5,728 bases of DNA from an archaeon (GTDB taxonomy: Archaea; Asgardarchaeota; Thorarchaeia; Thorarchaeales; Thorarchaeaceae): NCBI GenBank assembly GCA_024275415.1, contig JAJRZD010000094.1:1-5728 (forward strand), given 5' to 3'. Positions 1-5,728 of this stretch are shown piece by piece. Positions within the stretch are counted from its first letter, which is position 1; each line of letters opens with the position of its first letter. The translations under genes were made by a program, and so were the position numbers. A model generated the notes under the pieces. That model made no database searches, was not told the origin of the DNA, and worked only from the letters and a program-made list of their open reading frames with translations.

Positions 1-1
1 C

Positions 2-298
2 CTTAATGGGGGAATCATCTCAACGATAATAGACTGCCATGGAACTGGAACTGCAAATGCATACCATCACGAGGTTGGGGAACTGGAAACCCACTCTATG
101 CATGTGACAGCGAGCCTGACCATCCGATTCTTGAAGCCCACTCCGCTTGGTCACCCTGTCACGCTTCGTGCAAGGATCCGTGAAACCGACGGACGGAAGA
201 CGATAGTCGATTGTGACCTCTATGCTGGTGACGAGAAATGTGTCGTCGGGCAGATAGTGACCGTGAAAGTGGATGTTCAGGCATTCCTCGACCGATGA
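2..298 (+). CDS. PaaI-family hotdog-fold thioesterase, 5'-truncated by the window edge
   Basis: The frame of ORF 98..298 stays open back to base 2: LNGGIISTIIDCHGTGTANAYHHEVGELETHS-MHVTASLTIRFLKPTP... 'NGGIISTIIDC' matches the hotdog HGG-x5-D helix, and 'VTASLTIRFLKPTPLG..VTLRARI...GRKTIV' matches the following strands. TGA stop at 296-298. The track's ATG at 98 is internal. Confidence 0.9.
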   Translation, partial: LNGGIISTIIDCHGTGTANAYHHEVGELETHSMHVTASLTIRFLKPTPLGHPVTLRARIRETDGRKTIVDCDLYAGDEKCVVGQIVTVKVDVQAFLDR

Positions 299-310
299 GA
301 GGATGGCACT

Positions 311-406
311 ATGACTGTTCCTTTTGGATGGATATCGTCCACAATGGAAACACTTGATAGTCTACTTATTGCAGATGATAGAGCAGGAGATTCTATTGCA
401 CGATGA
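311..406 (+). CDS. Possible 31-aa small ORF (MTVPFGWISSTMETLDSLLIADDRAGDSIAR)
   Basis: ATG at 311, TGA at 404-406 overlapping the radical SAM ATG (ATGA at 403-406). A weak SD-like GAGGATG lies at 299-305. No recognisable homology. Confidence 0.3.
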   Translation: MTVPFGWISSTMETLDSLLIADDRAGDSIAR

Positions 407-1734
407 AGGGATTGTGTCCGGCATGTGGACGACTTGTCGAGGCAGAGGAGGTCACTGATGCTGGTCATGTGGTACTTGTCAAGAGGTGTCCCGAGCACGG
501 CGAGTCACGTATGCTCCTCTCTGCTGATGCCACATACTGGAACTGGTCTTTGAGGTACAATCGACCCGGCACAGCTCCCTTCAAGTGGTCTAGTGAGGTA
601 AAGGATGGTTGTCCTAACGACTGTGGCATCTGCCCATCCCATAAGCAGCATTCTTGCGTCTGCATTATTGAAATCACTGAATCCTGTAATTTACGTTGTC
701 CGATTTGTTTTGCAGACACTCCTTCTGGTGGTCATCTACCACTTGAACAGGTCACGTCAATGATTGATGCTTTTGTTTCTTACGAAACTAACCCCGAGAT
801 CCTTCAGATTAGTGGCGGCGAACCCACAACCCATCCTGACATCATCGACATAATCAAGTATGCCAAAGGATTCGGGATTGAGGACGTGGTTGTTTCCACA
901 AATGGACTGAAACTGTCAGATGAAGATTTCATGAACGAGTTCTCAAAAGAGGATCCTGTGGTCTATCTCCAGTTTGACACCTTCGATCCAGCTATTTCAC
1001 AGCGCATCCGCGGCCATGACCTAGTTGAGAAAAAGATGCAGGCAGTAGACGCTTGCAATGAGCATGGAATCACGGTGGTTCTTGTGCCTACCCTCGTGAG
1101 AGGGCTGAACGACCATGAGATTGGACGCATCATAGAATACGGCATCCATCAACAAAGGGTATTCGGGGTCAACTTTCAGCCTCTCGCAATGACTGGTAGA
1201 GTTGGACTCCCAGGTGCTGAGTCGCTGACAATCGACGAGGTTCTGCGGAAGATCGAGGAGCAGACCTCTGGGATTCATAAGGCAAGAGATTTCCGCCCCA
1301 TTCCCTGTCCACATCCTCATTGCACTGCGATAAGCTATGTGCTTGTTGATGGGGACGAGGTAGTGCCACTGACCGAGATCGTGAATGTCGATGATTACAT
1401 TGACTATGCAAAGGATCGCACGCTCGTCAGCAAGTCGACTCTCTTGGATAACACCTTCGATTCGCTATTCTCGACGAGTGCCATCCCTGGCACTGAAAGA
1501 ACCATCTCTGCATTCTGTGAGGCATGTGGCATTAGTGTTCCTGAGTTCCTTGGCAAGTCTGTCAAGACAATCTCCGTGCATGCCTTCATGGATGTCGGGA
1601 AATACCAGATTGAAAGAGTTCAGAAATGTTGTATACATTTGATTCAACCAGATGGGAAGATGATTCCTTTCTGTAATTACAACATGTTCCATAGGCACAA
1701 GTCAGGTGATATCTTTGAGAAACCCACGAATTGA
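403..1734 (+). CDS. Tes/GDGT-MAS/Mss-like (COG1964) radical SAM enzyme with N-terminal metal site and two auxiliary Fe-S sites
   Basis: 443 aa with 19 Cys. N-terminal C5xxC8...C29PEH32 site; C70xxxC74xxC77xxH80; radical SAM C95xxxC99xxC102; SGGEPT and STNG motifs; YLQFD; VVLVPTLVRGLNDHEIG; GVNFQP..MTGR; C-terminal FMD...C409C410IH...DG.MIPFC424.YN. This motif order matches MJ0619/Tes as I remember it. Confidence 0.92.
   Translation: MKGLCPACGRLVEAEEVTDAGHVVLVKRCPEHGESRMLLSADATYWNWSLRYNRPGTAPFKWSSEVKDGCPNDCGICPSHKQHSCVCIIEITESCNLRCPICFADTPSGGHLPLEQVTSMIDAFVSYETNPEILQISGGEPTTHPDIIDIIKYAKGFGIEDVVVSTNGLKLSDEDFMNEFSKEDPVVYLQFDTFDPAISQRIRGHDLVEKKMQAVDACNEHGITVVLVPTLVRGLNDHEIGRIIEYGIHQQRVFGVNFQPLAMTGRVGLPGAESLTIDEVLRKIEEQTSGIHKARDFRPIPCPHPHCTAISYVLVDGDEVVPLTEIVNVDDYIDYAKDRTLVSKSTLLDNTFDSLFSTSAIPGTERTISAFCEACGISVPEFLGKSVKTISVHAFMDVGKYQIERVQKCCIHLIQPDGKMIPFCNYNMFHRHKSGDIFEKPTN
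1704..1710 (+). promoter_or_regulatory. Shine-Dalgarno site AGGTGAT for the methyltransferase
   Basis: AGGTGAT matches the 16S 3' anti-SD (AUCACCU). An in-frame TTG sits 4 nt downstream at 1715-1717, inside the 3' end of the radical SAM gene. Confidence 0.55.
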
Positions 1735-2515
1735 CAGCGAGTATTTAGGACGTTGTTGCGCAGATGTTTATACTCATCCTGTGGTCACAAAGCTCCTTGA
1801 TGGTATTTTTCACCCTGGTGGATTGGCTCTGAGCAACTTGATGGCCGAGAAGATGAGGATTGATTCCGGTTCGAAGGTCTTGGACATTGCATGTGGTGAT
1901 GGACTGACTGCGACTTTTCTTGCAAAGAAGTTCTCGTGTCATGTTTCCGGTATAGACGCCGGCTCATCGATGATAGACCGCGCCATCACGCGCGCTCAAG
2001 AGGCTGGTGTTGGATACGCGACGGATTTCAGGGTCGGCTACGCGACAAACATCCCATTTCCAGACGCTCATTTCGACGCTGCGTATAGTGAATGTGCTGT
2101 GTGTACGTTCAATGACAAGAACCATTCAGTCCAAGAAACCATCAGGGTTCTGAGAGTTGGAGGTACTTTAGGAGTGAATGATATTATCATCCGCGACTTT
2201 GAAGATCTGGATGAAGAACTCAAAGGCATTCTGGGTCAAGTCCTATGCATCGCGGGAGCCCTCTCTCCGGATGGATACATAACCCTTTTTGAACAGGGGG
2301 GCTTCTCGTTGAAAGAAACATCTTCGCATACTGACGTTCTGAAGCAGATGGTGGACAAGGCATCAAATAGAGTACGTATGCTAACAGCTCTTGATGAGTC
2401 CTTTTTAGAAACAGCGTCCATAGATGATGTTTCGAGAATTATCCGGAACATCAAGGATCAGATTCATACTGGGAATATAGGCTATGCGATGTTCATATTC
2501 GAGAAATCAGTGTGA
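1706..2515 (+). CDS. Class I SAM-dependent methyltransferase, ArsM-related (Cys-rich, CC/HPGG type); start GTG 1706 or TTG 1715
   Basis: Motif I VLDIACGDG, acidic GIDAG, post-II FDAAYSECAVC, RVLRVGG and LCIAGAL...Y..LFEQGGF. The last three echo ArsM 'SNCVIN...RVLKPGG...GCIAGAL..Y...L..AGF'. It has an N-terminal RCC..VY and an HPGG motif in place of ArsM GCGNP. It overlaps the end of the radical SAM gene. Confidence 0.9.
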   Translation: MISLRNPRIDSEYLGRCCADVYTHPVVTKLLDGIFHPGGLALSNLMAEKMRIDSGSKVLDIACGDGLTATFLAKKFSCHVSGIDAGSSMIDRAITRAQEAGVGYATDFRVGYATNIPFPDAHFDAAYSECAVCTFNDKNHSVQETIRVLRVGGTLGVNDIIIRDFEDLDEELKGILGQVLCIAGALSPDGYITLFEQGGFSLKETSSHTDVLKQMVDKASNRVRMLTALDESFLETASIDDVSRIIRNIKDQIHTGNIGYAMFIFEKSV

Positions 2516-3169
2516 CTTTCCTTGATAGAGATCCTCATAGAAAAGTCCTGAGTAGAGCAACTTCCGATGGACTGGTCTGAACATCGATGCTGCTATGCCA
2601 CTCACATCGACTGAATATGTTTCATCATTCCCTCCCAGCTGCTTTGATAGCCATATAGCCATTGGATTGAAGACCGAAAGTAGCCCAGTGAACTTCTGGC
2701 AGTCTAGCAGCATAAGGTATCCCTGTGGCTTGAGCACCTTAGATATCTCTTCCAGTACAAGAGGTGAATCAGGTATTATTGATAGAGAGTAAGTCGAGAT
2801 AATCAGGTCAAAGTTTTCTGTAATGTGTTCGGAAAGATGCCTAGCATCACCAAGGATGAGTTCTATATTTCTCCATCCTCCATCCCTGACCCTCTTCCTT
2901 GCTCTCAAGAGCATCTCAGGAGTATAATCGATGCCGATGATTTTGGAATAGCTTGGATACTTCTCAATCAGGTACGGCAAATTCACACCCGTTCCAACAG
3001 CGACATCAAGGATCCTAGGTGAGCTTAGTTCAGGTAGCCTTGCGAAGGCATTCTCCCGCCATTTCTTGAGATTGACGCCCAGCGCCTTGTAAGCCTTGAG
3101 GATCATGTCGTATTTCCTTGCAGTCACGCTATACACATCTCTAATACTTTCTCCCAGAGTCGAGTCCAT
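2507..3169 (-). CDS. Class I SAM-dependent methyltransferase, PmtA/UbiE(MenG)-like
   Basis: Y..TA.KYD N-terminal motif, ILDVAVGTGVNL motif I, GIDYTPEML, GDA, FDLIISTYSLSIIPD, VLKPQG. I prefer ATG 3169 (MDSTLG..., 220 aa) over GTG 3199 because AAGGAAGGT lies 9 nt upstream of it. Confidence 0.88.
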   Translation of the reverse strand: MDSTLGESIRDVYSVTARKYDMILKAYKALGVNLKKWRENAFARLPELSSPRILDVAVGTGVNLPYLIEKYPSYSKIIGIDYTPEMLLRARKRVRDGGWRNIELILGDARHLSEHITENFDLIISTYSLSIIPDSPLVLEEISKVLKPQGYLMLLDCQKFTGLLSVFNPMAIWLSKQLGGNDETYSVDVSGIAASMFRPVHRKLLYSGLFYEDLYQGKSH

Positions 3170-3178
3170 CTCAAACAA

Positions 3179-3187
3179 ACCTTCCTT
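3179..3187 (-). promoter_or_regulatory. SD-like AAGGAAGGT upstream of ATG 3169
   Basis: Purine-rich SD-like run 9 nt before the ATG, overlapping the TAA of the upstream gene. Confidence 0.35.
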
Positions 3188-3902
3188 ATTTCTTAACACT
3201 GGAACTAAAGCAGTATATCACACCAAATTGATGGAGAAAGCGCATCGTTTCTGCCAGCAGGCTCTCATCCTTTGTTTTGATGTTTGGGTCTGCTAGAATC
3301 TCGGATGGTTTCTTTTTCTCAGCAAGGCTATCGCATAACTCCTCAAGATCCTTCATGGGCATCTTAATGACCGCCGCAAGGGGTGACAGCATGAGGTAGT
3401 GCTCGAAAAGATTTTTTCCTGTCCATCGTGCATTCTTATATTCAGCAAGCTGGAATGAGTGCTCCTCATCCCACGCGAACACATCATTCTGTTCTGCGAA
3501 AATAGTCCTAGCATTAGACCTGATTATCTCATCAACATCAGACACCAGCTCGCTTGTTCTCTCGTAGTAATCGGTAAGGTATCCCTTTCTCTCGATCAGG
3601 TCACCAATCGTCCGAAGCTCCTCCTTTGCTTTCACGTAGAACTCCTGATTTCCAATGTTTGTAAGCAGCACCACGATGCCGTTTGTTGTTCTAGCATAGA
3701 CCACATCGTATGCTCTGAAACCGATAGAATCCAAAGCGCCATCCTCCCCAATCCCAAGGCTCTGTCCTACATTATCTAATGCTGAAAGCAACCCTCCGAA
3801 GAGTGCATCATCAATCTCTATCTGTCCAGTTCCCACATGTCCTAGAGGAAGACCACTTTCGTGAATGACAAGGATTTCCCTCACATGTTTCTTTGGTTCC
3901 AT
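3186..3902 (-). CDS. Longin/roadblock-like N-terminal domain fused to a probable C-terminal winged helix (Asgard-type)
   Basis: The N-terminal ~100 aa 'REILVIHESGLPL...IDDALFGGLLSALDNVGQSL...LDSIGFRAYDVVYARTTNGIVVLLTN...KEELRTIGDLIE' follow the longin beta-beta-alpha-beta-beta-beta-alpha pattern typical of Asgard proteins. The C-terminal 'LEELCDSL..KKKPSEIL......ESLLAETMRFLHQFGVIYC' looks like wHTH. The ATG directly follows the upstream TAG. Confidence 0.75.
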   Translation of the reverse strand: MEPKKHVREILVIHESGLPLGHVGTGQIEIDDALFGGLLSALDNVGQSLGIGEDGALDSIGFRAYDVVYARTTNGIVVLLTNIGNQEFYVKAKEELRTIGDLIERKGYLTDYYERTSELVSDVDEIIRSNARTIFAEQNDVFAWDEEHSFQLAEYKNARWTGKNLFEHYLMLSPLAAVIKMPMKDLEELCDSLAEKKKPSEILADPNIKTKDESLLAETMRFLHQFGVIYCFSSSVKK

Positions 3903-4910
3903 CTACGCGCCCTCCTTCACAGCAATGATCCAGTTGTCCCCAATGGTTTCTGCGGTCAGCTTGTGGCGTGAGAATATCTCGTGTATCTCGTCCCGCTTGA
4001 CCGGTTGTGGATATCCTTCTATGGTCTGCATGAGTATGTATGCGGGAGAACTGACACTTTCGCCTGGGGACAACGTGGGATCATTTGTTATGAGTTTCGC
4101 TCCAGGCTTCAGGCAGGACGAAACAATACGCACACGTTCTTCCAGCGAATCATGGGAGAATGCGAATAGCTCTTCCCCATAGAACAGATCTAACTGTTCC
4201 TCAATCTTTCTCCCAAGAATATCCGTGGTCAGTTTGCCTAGCACCTCATTTCCTGACAAGTGGCTTAGGATAGAGGTAAGAAGGGAAAGCCATCGGTAGT
4301 TCTGCATGAAAAGATGGATGCGCGCAGGGTCAAAGATTTCGTTGACCTGCTGCAATGCGTAGGGCAGTCCAACATCAGCGAATGCAGAAACTCCAATCTC
4401 TTTCGCGTTCTTTGGAGCAAAAGATCGTAAGAGGACACCTCTTCCCTTCTTTGTCATCGTACTACTGAATACAGACTCCAGCACAATACGTGGTACGCTT
4501 TCCAACGCGACAGTCTGTCCTCTTAGTGCATCAGGTAGGAATTGGGCACAATCAAAGTAGAAATTGGTCAGAACTGTGCCGACATCCTCTGGTCTGATAG
4601 GTGTCGCTTTCAATTCTTTGATCGAATAGGTTTCGCCCTCCTGCCTCAGCACTCCATTTTTCACAAGAAGCGTAAGGATATTCTCAAGAAGTGGGATATT
4701 GGTGTAACTGAACTCATTTGCGACCTCTTGACATGTCCTTGGCTGGGACAGCGAGATTATCCACCCCTCGGATAGTATCGTATTGACAATAAGACGGAAT
4801 GCCATCTCCTCGGATTCCTTGTACTCTGCATAGGCTTTCCTTAGATCTGAATCGGTCAGGTATTTTCCGACCTTTTTCAGTCCGAATATACCTCCTTTGA
4901 ATCTCGCCAT
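3903..4910 (-). CDS. N-terminal wHTH plus degenerate class I methyltransferase-fold protein
   Basis: 335-aa ORF. 'QPRTCQEVANEF...LLENILTLLVKNGVLRQEGETYS' resembles the wHTH of O-methyltransferases. 'EQLDLFYGEELF...VSSCLKPGAKLITND' is the C-terminal half of the MTase fold. No GxGxG motif I is visible. Confidence 0.75.
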   Translation of the reverse strand: MARFKGGIFGLKKVGKYLTDSDLRKAYAEYKESEEMAFRLIVNTILSEGWIISLSQPRTCQEVANEFSYTNIPLLENILTLLVKNGVLRQEGETYSIKELKATPIRPEDVGTVLTNFYFDCAQFLPDALRGQTVALESVPRIVLESVFSSTMTKKGRGVLLRSFAPKNAKEIGVSAFADVGLPYALQQVNEIFDPARIHLFMQNYRWLSLLTSILSHLSGNEVLGKLTTDILGRKIEEQLDLFYGEELFAFSHDSLEERVRIVSSCLKPGAKLITNDPTLSPGESVSSPAYILMQTIEGYPQPVKRDEIHEIFSRHKLTAETIGDNWIIAVKEGA

Positions 4911-4919
4911 TCTTCTATC

Positions 4920-4927
4920 TCACTCCT
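4920..4927 (-). promoter_or_regulatory. SD-like AGGAGTGA containing the DUF547 stop codon
   Basis: The minus strand reads AGGAGTGA-gatagaaga-ATG(4910), a 9-nt spacer. Confidence 0.45.
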
Positions 4928-5642
4928 TCTCTTCGCTTGTGTTCAACGACCAGTCATAGTCGATGTAAGTGATCCTCAACGAATCTGTGTTCTCTAGGAT
5001 GTAGTTCTTCTGGCCATCTGGAAGATATTGTGCCACATATTCAGGAATAGATTTACCCGTAGCTTCAAAATCCTTCTTGTACCACTTGAAAATCATGCTG
5101 ACCGAGAGGGTGTTGCTTTCTTTATCCAAGACGACCCCCTGAGGTGATCTCAAATAGAGCTTGGATGCTTCTTCTAGCTCCTTATCGAGATTTTCAGAAC
5201 TGTATCGCCCATCCTTCAAGACCGGACACCCCAGCGACGAGCAGTTCAGCGCAAAGTGAATGCGCGGGTCTCTAAACCTCTTTCGAAGGTCGTTCTCGAT
5301 ATCCCTCAGTGTGACCTCTTTCCCACCAACATTGAACTTCTGGAGCGCAAAGAACCGCACTCGTTGGAACCAGCTCGCATTACCCTTTTCTGCAAATTTC
5401 GGATTGCTTTTCAGTTTCTTAATGACCCCATAGATTGAGAGGGCATTATAGCAATTGATCCAGAACGCCATCTCTTTCTCTTTCGAGTCCAATGTACTCA
5501 GGTCGAAGGTTGCCAGCGATTCTGCAAAGGAAGTGATTGATGTGTCCCCCACCATTGAGAGGTAATTCACATTGCCGCTTGGATCCCTATATCTGCTAAG
5601 AACACTCTTGAGGGTTGCGCTAATAGTATTATATTCACTCAT
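4920..5642 (-). CDS. DUF547 domain-containing protein
   Basis: Hallmark motifs G.VNY, AFWINCYNAL, VGG..VTL.DIE, DPRIHFALNCSSLGCP, LS.SMIFKWY..DF and YDWSLN. An in-frame TAG upstream fixes the start at ATG 5642. Confidence 0.93.
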   Translation of the reverse strand: MSEYNTISATLKSVLSRYRDPSGNVNYLSMVGDTSITSFAESLATFDLSTLDSKEKEMAFWINCYNALSIYGVIKKLKSNPKFAEKGNASWFQRVRFFALQKFNVGGKEVTLRDIENDLRKRFRDPRIHFALNCSSLGCPVLKDGRYSSENLDKELEEASKLYLRSPQGVVLDKESNTLSVSMIFKWYKKDFEATGKSIPEYVAQYLPDGQKNYILENTDSLRITYIDYDWSLNTSEEKE

Positions 5643-5694
5643 ATCTTGAGCATTCCCCTATGCATATTCGCTGTATCCCGCAATCCGTTGAAGC

Positions 5695-5700
5695 TATTTA
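5695..5700 (-). promoter_or_regulatory. Possible archaeal TATA box (TAAATA) for the minus-strand operon
   Basis: The minus strand reads gcTAAATAgc about 53 nt upstream of the DUF547 ATG. There is no clear purine-rich BRE. Confidence 0.25.
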
Positions 5701-5701
5701 G

Positions 5702-5723
5702 CAGGATGTAGTAAAACATCCGG
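5702..5723. repeat. Inverted repeat cAGGATGT-agtaaa-ACATCCGg
   Basis: Perfect 6-bp arms GGATGT (5704-5709) and ACATCC (5716-5721) with a 6-nt spacer, extendable to 7/8. Confidence 0.5.
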
Positions 5724-5728
5724 TATTA

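Follow-up and report, generated by a model that had tools for sequence, protein, structure and literature searches.

A conserved pair of a Tes-like radical SAM enzyme and a cysteine-rich methyltransferase in Thorarchaeota, possibly acting in the formation of lipids with methylated heteroatoms

The window analyzed here is the whole of a 5,728-nucleotide contig (JAJRZD010000094.1, positions 1 to 5,728 of the forward strand; C76 in our numbering) from the Thorarchaeaceae metagenome-assembled genome (MAG) GCA_024275415.1, which comprises 3.5 Mb in 127 contigs. Among its seven open reading frames (ORFs), we identified a gene encoding a multi-cluster radical S-adenosylmethionine (SAM) enzyme related to Tes, and overlapping its 3' end a gene encoding a class I methyltransferase, here named MT1. 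The two genes form a conserved, translationally coupled functional unit. The best explanation for this unit, which we hold tentatively, is that the two proteins make a lipid carrying a methylated heteroatom; for this proposal we infer the substrate, the heteroatom and the order of the steps. The points that are new here are the exclusion of the upstream thioesterase from the system, a six-gene module in Thorarchaeota, a decayed second copy of the locus in the same genome, and a link between the cluster ligands of the radical SAM enzyme and the type of partner encoded next to it.

Conservation of the radical SAM and methyltransferase pair

MT1 may start at a GTG at position 1706 or at a TTG at position 1715 located behind the sequence GGTGA. 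Both candidates lie inside the 3' end of the radical SAM gene, whose stop codon is found at 1732-1734, giving an overlap of 20-29 nt between the two genes. A first-pass annotation, made by a model from the letters of the sequence, had placed the start of the methyltransferase at this location, and described the thioesterase, radical SAM and methyltransferase genes as co-oriented and tightly packed. All three ORFs are indeed present on the forward strand and their family assignments hold, and close packing is seen for the radical SAM gene and MT1, but not for the thioesterase gene, which is separated from the radical SAM gene by 104 nt.

Within the family, 17 of ~81 genomes carry an orthologue of the radical SAM enzyme (58-69% identity); among other Asgard genomes, the number is 4 of ~224. 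MT1 is located downstream of the radical SAM gene in nine Thorarchaeota loci, as well as in genome G033. Outside Asgard, we examined 80 GTDB loci, which were sorted into two groups. In the near subclade (38-67% identity to the window enzyme), an MT1 homologue is located directly downstream on the same strand in all of the 27 testable loci, often with an overlap of 4 nt. These loci belong to Chloroflexota/Dehalococcoidia, Acidobacteriota, Actinomycetota, Ktedonobacteraceae, and a Thaumarchaeote, and MT1 was also observed next to the radical SAM enzyme in metagenomic contexts. In the second group, consisting of 36 more distant loci (within L084 and L088-L134) from Flavobacteriia, Paenibacillus, cyanobacteria, and Planctomycetota, an Lgt-like membrane protein (PF01790) adjoins the radical SAM enzyme instead of a methyltransferase. 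Both arrangements are also found as fusions: P0143 is an Lgt-radical SAM fusion, while P0173 is a methyltransferase-radical SAM fusion in which the methyltransferase part is a true member of the DVU_1556 family (251.8 bits against the NF045667 cut-off of 155) and aligns to MT1 with 99.9% probability. The association of the radical SAM enzyme with an ArsM-like methyltransferase noted in the first-pass annotation is thus conserved far beyond this genome.

The recurrent neighbours in the bacterial loci include pyridine-nucleotide disulfide reductases, major facilitator superfamily (MFS) transporters, a thioredoxin-like protein, rhodanese, TauE, PlsY, and a CoA-transferase. PlsY follows MT1 in six Dehalococcoidia loci. 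Such neighbours suggest thiol chemistry and substrates of an acyl or lipid nature rather than ars operons.

Relationship of the radical SAM enzyme to Tes and TrsS

The radical SAM enzyme aligns over its full length with GDGT-MAS (MJ0619; PDB 7TOL, E 2.6e-75; also PDB 7TOM), with which it shares the domain order. When scored against the curated NCBIfam models, it reaches 320 bits for Tes (NF045702, cut-off 450) and 347 bits for TrsS (NF045646, cut-off 490), the latter being its best NCBIfam match. The genome's own Tes (contig C127:8906-10360) scores 640.6 bits against the Tes model, and the true TrsS members P0163, P0151, and P0188 score 545-595 bits against theirs. A FastTree phylogeny of the COG1964 family built from 135 representatives splits into two halves with 100% SH-like (Shimodaira-Hasegawa-like) support. 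The window protein is located in one half, of which 22 members were scanned, the window protein included; none of them reaches the Tes or the TrsS cut-off. The opposite half consists of the Tes clade, including the Tes of this genome, and the TrsS clade, the identities of both being confirmed by labelled members. The enzyme is, on sequence grounds, a third and unnamed branch of the Tes/TrsS (COG1964) family. Score, tree placement and residues rule out TrsS as an assignment, and Tes is likewise ruled out by its score, by the tree and by the residues His393 and Leu413 described below. The term Tes-like, as used in the first-pass annotation, is supported, and a grouping with bona fide Tes, which that annotation had named as evidence against its reading, was not observed.

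All of the metal ligands described for GDGT-MAS (PMC9433317) are retained in the window enzyme. These include a rubredoxin-type site (C5/C8/C29/H32), the [4Fe-4S]N site (C70/C74/C77/H80), the radical SAM motif CX3CX2C (C95/C99/C102), and the Tes-type C-terminal triad C307/C409/C424, which is conserved across all clades. The first step, abstraction of hydrogen from an inert carbon, is probably common to Tes and the window enzyme. Two residues of GDGT-MAS reported as completely conserved in 1000 archaeal homologues, Met439 and Tyr459 (PMC9433317), are however changed. The labile cluster ligand Met439 is replaced by His393 and Tyr459 by Leu413, whereas among 19 Tes-clade representatives Met is found in 17 and Tyr likewise in 17. 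In addition, all 77 loci of the window branch encode three cysteines that Tes does not have, C85, C302, and C410. Two of the three lie beside the Tes-type cluster ligands C307 and C409, and together they could bind an additional cluster or one of a different kind, or else provide a three-thiolate site. The methyltransferase-coupled subclade also carries a CxxC motif at positions 372/375. The enzyme is ~100 aa shorter than the genome's own Tes and does not contain the Tes-specific insert of ~20 aa before C307.

The set of cluster ligands tracks the type of partner. The MT1-coupled enzymes keep the triad C307/C409/C424 in 25-27 of 27 loci, while the Lgt-coupled sisters have lost the triad and keep C85/C302/C410; the Tes-type triad is thus lost exactly where the partner differs.

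The closest described system is TrsS together with its DVU_1556-family methyltransferase, known from comparative genomics only. A bioinformatic description of this (seleno)protein and methyltransferase system was reportedly given by Haft and Tolstoy in 2025. As in the window, a Tes-related radical SAM enzyme is combined with a cysteine-bearing class I methyltransferase of the same superfamily branch; both window proteins have their best NCBIfam match in this system, a fusion of the two proteins exists, and Cys85 is common to both radical SAM enzymes. The window proteins nevertheless fall below the respective cut-offs, the radical SAM enzyme belongs to the other half of the tree and has His at the labile ligand position where TrsS has Met, and the companion genes in Thorarchaeota are different. 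The neighbours of the TrsS system belong to NF045666 (AMP-binding), NF045669 (C_GCAxxG) and NF045645, and the NCBIfam families built around TrsS comprise an AMP-binding enzyme, a C_GCAxxG protein, and a 60-aa protein. No genes of the DVU_1553 (AMP-binding), DVU_1555 (C_GCAxxG), and DVU_1557 families were found in the window, and the rest of the genome gave weak unlinked matches or none. For the true TrsS P0151 (582 bits), a gene for a MaoC/FAS1-type hotdog dehydratase was observed downstream (L058:1408-1953) on one short contig, which is a further neighbour related to acyl chains.

Within the COG1964 family, we also observed fusions to a MobA-like nucleoside triphosphate (NTP) transferase, with or without an HD domain, to DUF5714, and to an AMP-binding domain (P0170, P0169, P0179, P0259, P0200, P0209, and P0252). 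Judged from these fusions, the scaffold has been recruited into several different pathways.

The separation of this branch from Tes is of practical importance, as Tes homologues serve as markers for producers of glycerol dialkyl glycerol tetraethers (GDGTs) and branched GDGTs (brGDGTs) (PMC8941075). With an E value of 1.4e-52 and 33% identity to the Tes of its own genome, the window enzyme would pass the BLAST thresholds of that study, and it almost certainly does something other than Tes. The Thorarchaeota relatives that are listed as lacking this paralogue still have a Tes-type gene of 500-600 aa.

Characteristics of MT1

The best NCBIfam match of MT1 is the DVU_1556 family (NF045667; 118.6 bits, below the cut-off given above), followed by several ArsM models (81 bits, cut-off 263 for NF008823). 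Bacterial MT1 partners score 138-148 bits against NF045667, and from its sequence MT1 is best described as a sister to the DVU_1556 family rather than a member. When a profile of 26 MT1 homologues was searched against the PDB, methyltransferases of the RebM/MitM/PEAMT type were matched with 113 bits and ArsM with 74 bits.

The conserved motifs of MT1 are CC..Y, HPGG, ECxxC, and C(I/V)xxA. Besides the class I fold, MT1 has in common with ArsM (PRK11873/NF008823; PDB 4FR0 and 5EVJ) the cysteines of the S-x-C and C-(I/L)-A-G-A-L motifs. In a HMMER alignment to ArsM from Chlamydomonas (5EVJ), SEC and CIAGAL of MT1 correspond to SNC and CLAGAL, which places Cys130 and Cys181 at the As(III)-binding positions of ArsM (Cys174 and Cys224 in CmArsM). 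Both residues are invariant in the 26 homologues, and RebM-type methyltransferases have no cysteine at either position. The CC pair is present in at least 90% of the MT1 homologues. The ArsM cysteines of the N-terminal catalytic disulfide cascade are residues which we take to be Cys44 and Cys72; where the loop cysteine of ArsM (GCGxP) would be expected, MT1 homologues have an invariant HPGG, and the ECxxC motif is an addition relative to ArsM. MT1 as a true ArsM is ruled out by both score and motif. Of the earlier designation ArsM-like, the cysteines at both As(III)-binding positions stand, while the score lies below the cut-off and the domain as a whole is nearer to the RebM type.

Proposed function of the pair

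Our tentative proposal starts from a 5'-deoxyadenosyl radical that would abstract hydrogen from an unactivated carbon of a hydrophobic substrate, probably an acyl or isoprenyl lipid, as in Tes. The carbon radical would then be trapped by a heteroatom bound at the C-terminal Fe-S/cysteine site, and methylation of the heteroatom by MT1 would replace the second radical step of Tes, in which a C-C bond is made. Methylation might take place before the transfer, through a methyl-S, methyl-Se or methyl-As species on the cysteine pair of MT1, or after it. The product would be a lipid with a methylated heteroatom, with sulfur as the default and selenium or arsenic as possible variants. We propose this mechanism because the Tes-type scaffold with all of its clusters is combined with an obligate cysteine-pair methyltransferase partner, and because the triad is lost where the partner differs. 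Hints of a lipid substrate come from the homology to GDGT-MAS, the Lgt partner and the Lgt fusion, PlsY, the AMP-binding fusions, and the AMP-binding family of the TrsS neighbourhood, while hints of thiol redox chemistry come from the disulfide reductase, thioredoxin-like, rhodanese, and TauE neighbours elsewhere. Taken together, hydrogen abstraction, trapping of the radical on a heteroatom and methylation by MT1 are conceivable, with doubt prevailing. The fuller version, where a Tes-type radical on a lipid tail is trapped, at the C-terminal cluster/Cys-triad site, on methylated S, Se or As to give membrane lipids with a terminal methylthio, methylseleno or methylarsino substituent, made by a dedicated six-gene module in Thorarchaeia, we consider rather doubtful.

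The working analogy is a MiaB/RimO reaction divided between two proteins. MiaB/RimO, BioB, and LipA, which are related to the present enzyme by analogy and not by homology, combine the radical SAM cluster with an auxiliary cluster carrying or donating the heteroatom, followed by SAM-derived methylation. MiaB and RimO perform both jobs with one polypeptide; in the window the methyltransferase is a protein of its own, and the radical SAM enzyme has the fold of the COG1964 family. We know of no enzyme for heteroatom-bearing lipids, and if the proposal is true, the radical SAM enzyme and MT1 would represent a new kind of C-X bond formation.

Several points weigh against this proposal. Methylation of a thiol sulfur would not call for a conserved pair of cysteines in the methyltransferase, and the profile of the whole MT1 domain is, as described above, nearer to the RebM, MitM and PEAMT type than to ArsM. 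The neighbours linked to lipids and thiol redox chemistry come from bacterial relatives, and the four extra genes of the Thorarchaeota module are uninformative in this respect. The related genomes are kin, and their counts are therefore not independent samples; the tree was calculated with FastTree only. We know of no member of the window branch or of TrsS whose product, substrate or activity has been established.

Other explanations must be weighed against the same evidence. Among these, we regard a substrate other than a lipid (a small molecule, a cofactor or a protein side chain), with the four-gene operon supplying other tailoring or regulatory proteins, as unlikely. The very diverse fusions of the family would fit such a role, as would the short length of the protein without the Tes-specific insert and the fact that no lipid enzyme is found among the Thorarchaeota companions; but Lgt-like, PlsY, and acyl-related neighbours recur in the sister clades, and the only characterized relatives work on lipid tails. 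It is improbable that the pair performs a two-protein radical C-methylation, in which MT1 would load a methyl group on a cysteine or cluster sulfide (compare RlmN/Cfr and MiaB) for transfer by the radical SAM enzyme to an unactivated carbon, giving a C-methyl or methylthio group on a lipid or another substrate. We know of no case in which a radical SAM enzyme is charged by a separately encoded class I methyltransferase, even if the conserved cysteines of MT1 near the methyl-transfer site, the tight coupling of the genes and the fusion of the sister pair are in accordance with such a division of labour. MJ0619, with which the family was founded, had originally been taken for a radical methylase, as reflected in the name of PF23545, but this assignment was not reproducible (PMC9433317).

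The full-length homology to GDGT-MAS with all Tes cluster ligands kept could also mean a Tes/Mss-like enzyme that forms membrane-spanning or macrocyclic lipids by C-C coupling, in which case the role of MT1 would be to add methyl branches or to modify a head group. Bacterial Tes homologues have been proposed as brGDGT synthases (PMC8941075), and Acidobacteriota have the pair. We nevertheless consider this quite improbable. The genome already has a true Tes, both Tes-invariant residues are changed in the paralogue, the pair has a patchy distribution within one archaeal family (17 of 81 genomes) and occurs in Chloroflexota and Thaumarchaeota irrespective of lipid type, and the constant presence of a dithiol methyltransferase beside the enzyme is not explained by C-methylation of lipids. 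The first-pass annotation favoured an arsenolipid pathway, in which MT1 would methylate As(III), the radical SAM enzyme would couple the arsenical to the terminal carbon of a lipid, and the thioesterase would release the product. MT1 keeps both As(III)-binding cysteine positions and has ArsM models as its next-best matches, and the invariant triad C85/C302/C410 could bind a thiophilic metalloid. The pairing of radical SAM enzymes with ArsM in both known organoarsenical routes, ArsS with ArsM for arsenosugars and ArsL with ArsM for arsinothricin, was confirmed from the literature (PMC12159101). ArsS and ArsL, however, are members of other radical SAM families; the acceptor of the SAM-derived groups that they transfer is arsenic, and their operons are found in ars contexts. 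Among the 25 best NCBIfam matches of the window radical SAM enzyme there were no ArsS or ArsL models, while several ArsM models from those pathways match MT1. The score of MT1 against ArsM and the replacement of the GCGxP cysteine by HPGG both speak against methylation of arsenic, and the proposed arsenic link found no support in the genomic context: contig C76 carries no ars gene, a profile scan of the genome gave no gene reaching the ArsM cut-off, and the Acr3 arsenite pump is located on another contig (C122:7074-8063, 416.7 bits), with no Acr3 within 8 kb of 93 related loci. As the pair is moreover common in soil and ocean bacteria in housekeeping-like contexts, and as the thioesterase is not conserved with it (see below), we regard the arsenolipid pathway as very improbable. 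Insertion of sulfur or selenium followed by methylation, mentioned as an alternative in the first-pass annotation, fits the contexts at least as well as arsenic.

Irrespective of its chemistry, the methyltransferase-coupled branch is widespread, extending from Asgard archaea to SAR202, Acidobacteriota, and Thaumarchaeota, and is without a curated family model. As a compact and strictly conserved two-gene unit with distinctive cysteines, it offers a test construct for further Tes-type radical chemistry.

Organization of the window

The features of the window are summarized in Table 1, and we have high confidence in the anatomy of the locus as given there. The closest database relatives of the contig proteins are labelled Candidatus Thorarchaeota. 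The four genes of the reverse strand are tightly packed. MT1 and MT2 are convergent and overlap by 9 nt at their 3' ends, and the end of the 238-aa gene overlaps the start of MT2 by 14 nt.

Table 1. Genes and other features of the 5,728-nucleotide window
Feature	Position	Strand	Remarks
4HBT hotdog-fold thioesterase, 3' part, 98 of 153 aa	2..298	+	PF03061, E 6.5e-9; 5' end cut by contig start
Intergenic spacer between thioesterase and radical SAM genes, 104 nt	299..402	+	Counterpart on C112 is 96% identical
Tes-like multi-cluster radical SAM enzyme, 443 aa	403..1734	+	PF23545 and PF04055; match to 7TOL
MT1, cysteine-rich class I SAM methyltransferase, 269 aa	1706..2515	+	Predicted sister to DVU_1556 family
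MT2, UbiE-like class I methyltransferase, 230 aa	2507..3199	-	Last gene of convergent operon
238-aa protein, longin/roadblock-like N-domain and helical C-terminal domain	3186..3902	-	Asgard-specific
335-aa protein, plant-type O-methyltransferase architecture	3903..4910	-	Winged-helix N-domain and Rossmann domain
DUF547 protein, 240 aa	4920..5642	-	PF04784, E 5e-25; first gene of convergent operon

The thioesterase and a decayed second copy of the locus

The thioesterase, which the first-pass annotation had included as the product-releasing enzyme, turned out to be an unrelated local neighbour. In none of the nine other Thorarchaeota loci, three of which belong to the same genus, and in none of the bacterial loci does a thioesterase gene precede the radical SAM gene. 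The spacer upstream of the radical SAM gene would leave space for a promoter of its own. As the window spans all of C76, the region upstream of the thioesterase is not visible at this locus. A second copy of the junction was identified in the same genome (G000, contig C112:38064-39037; L038:8065-9038). In this copy the thioesterase is intact (153 aa; 97% nucleotide and 98% amino acid identity) and located behind genes for a TrmB-type regulator and an acetyl-CoA hydrolase/transferase. The radical SAM gene, on the other hand, has decayed to a pseudogene: it retains 87% nucleotide identity but has acquired several stops, an indel of 8 bases, and a 371-to-84-bp deletion. Unrelated ParA-like genes come next, and the rest of the module is missing there. 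The persistence of the thioesterase without the radical SAM enzyme argues against a shared pathway, and together with its absence in all relatives this rules out the thioesterase as a pathway member. The C112 copy may have arisen by duplication within a single genome, or it may come from another strain present in the bin, for which contamination is 4.5%.

The convergent operon and the Thorarchaeia module

In every Thorarchaeota locus with enough sequence, the gene order is radical SAM, MT1, and then the convergent MT2, 238-aa, 335-aa, and DUF547 genes. The 335-aa gene was found in 14 of the 81 genomes of the family, all 14 of which are radical-SAM-positive, and the three radical-SAM-positive genomes without it are fragmentary. 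The restriction of the 335-aa gene to radical-SAM-positive genomes and the conserved order show that the six genes travel as one accessory module, which defines a patchily distributed element in the Thorarchaeia. When hidden Markov models (HMMs) of the DUF547, 238-aa, and 335-aa proteins were searched against the 80 GTDB loci, only the Thorarchaeota locus was matched; the four-gene operon is therefore lineage-specific. Beyond DUF547, a hydrophobic membrane protein of ~120 aa without a family match was observed in five Thorarchaeota loci (L029 and L031-L034; for example L033:9889-10257); the window contig does not extend this far.

MT2 has an intact SAM motif. The O-methyltransferase architecture of the 335-aa protein was recognized by a language-model and fold search (model pLDDT 60, from which only the fold class was used). 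Its glycine-rich SAM motif reads DVGLPY and no Pfam methyltransferase match was found; judging from this altered motif and the missing match, it may be a non-catalytic methyltransferase-like protein. A literature search for TrsS, DVU_1556, and DUF547 gave no functional data. The DUF547 orthologues contain an invariant HFALNC-x4-CP motif, and in plants DUF547 is fused to glutaredoxin domains (PMC13621322). The 238-aa protein has no Pfam or NCBIfam match and its Atlas neighbours are Thorarchaeota only. Its AlphaFold2 (AF2) model (pLDDT 72) gave Foldseek matches to sedlin, sigma-adaptin, and LAMTOR, with a best E value of 1.4e-4. A longin/roadblock-like protein found only in Asgard archaea is thus located within a metabolic operon, where it is translationally coupled to MT2.

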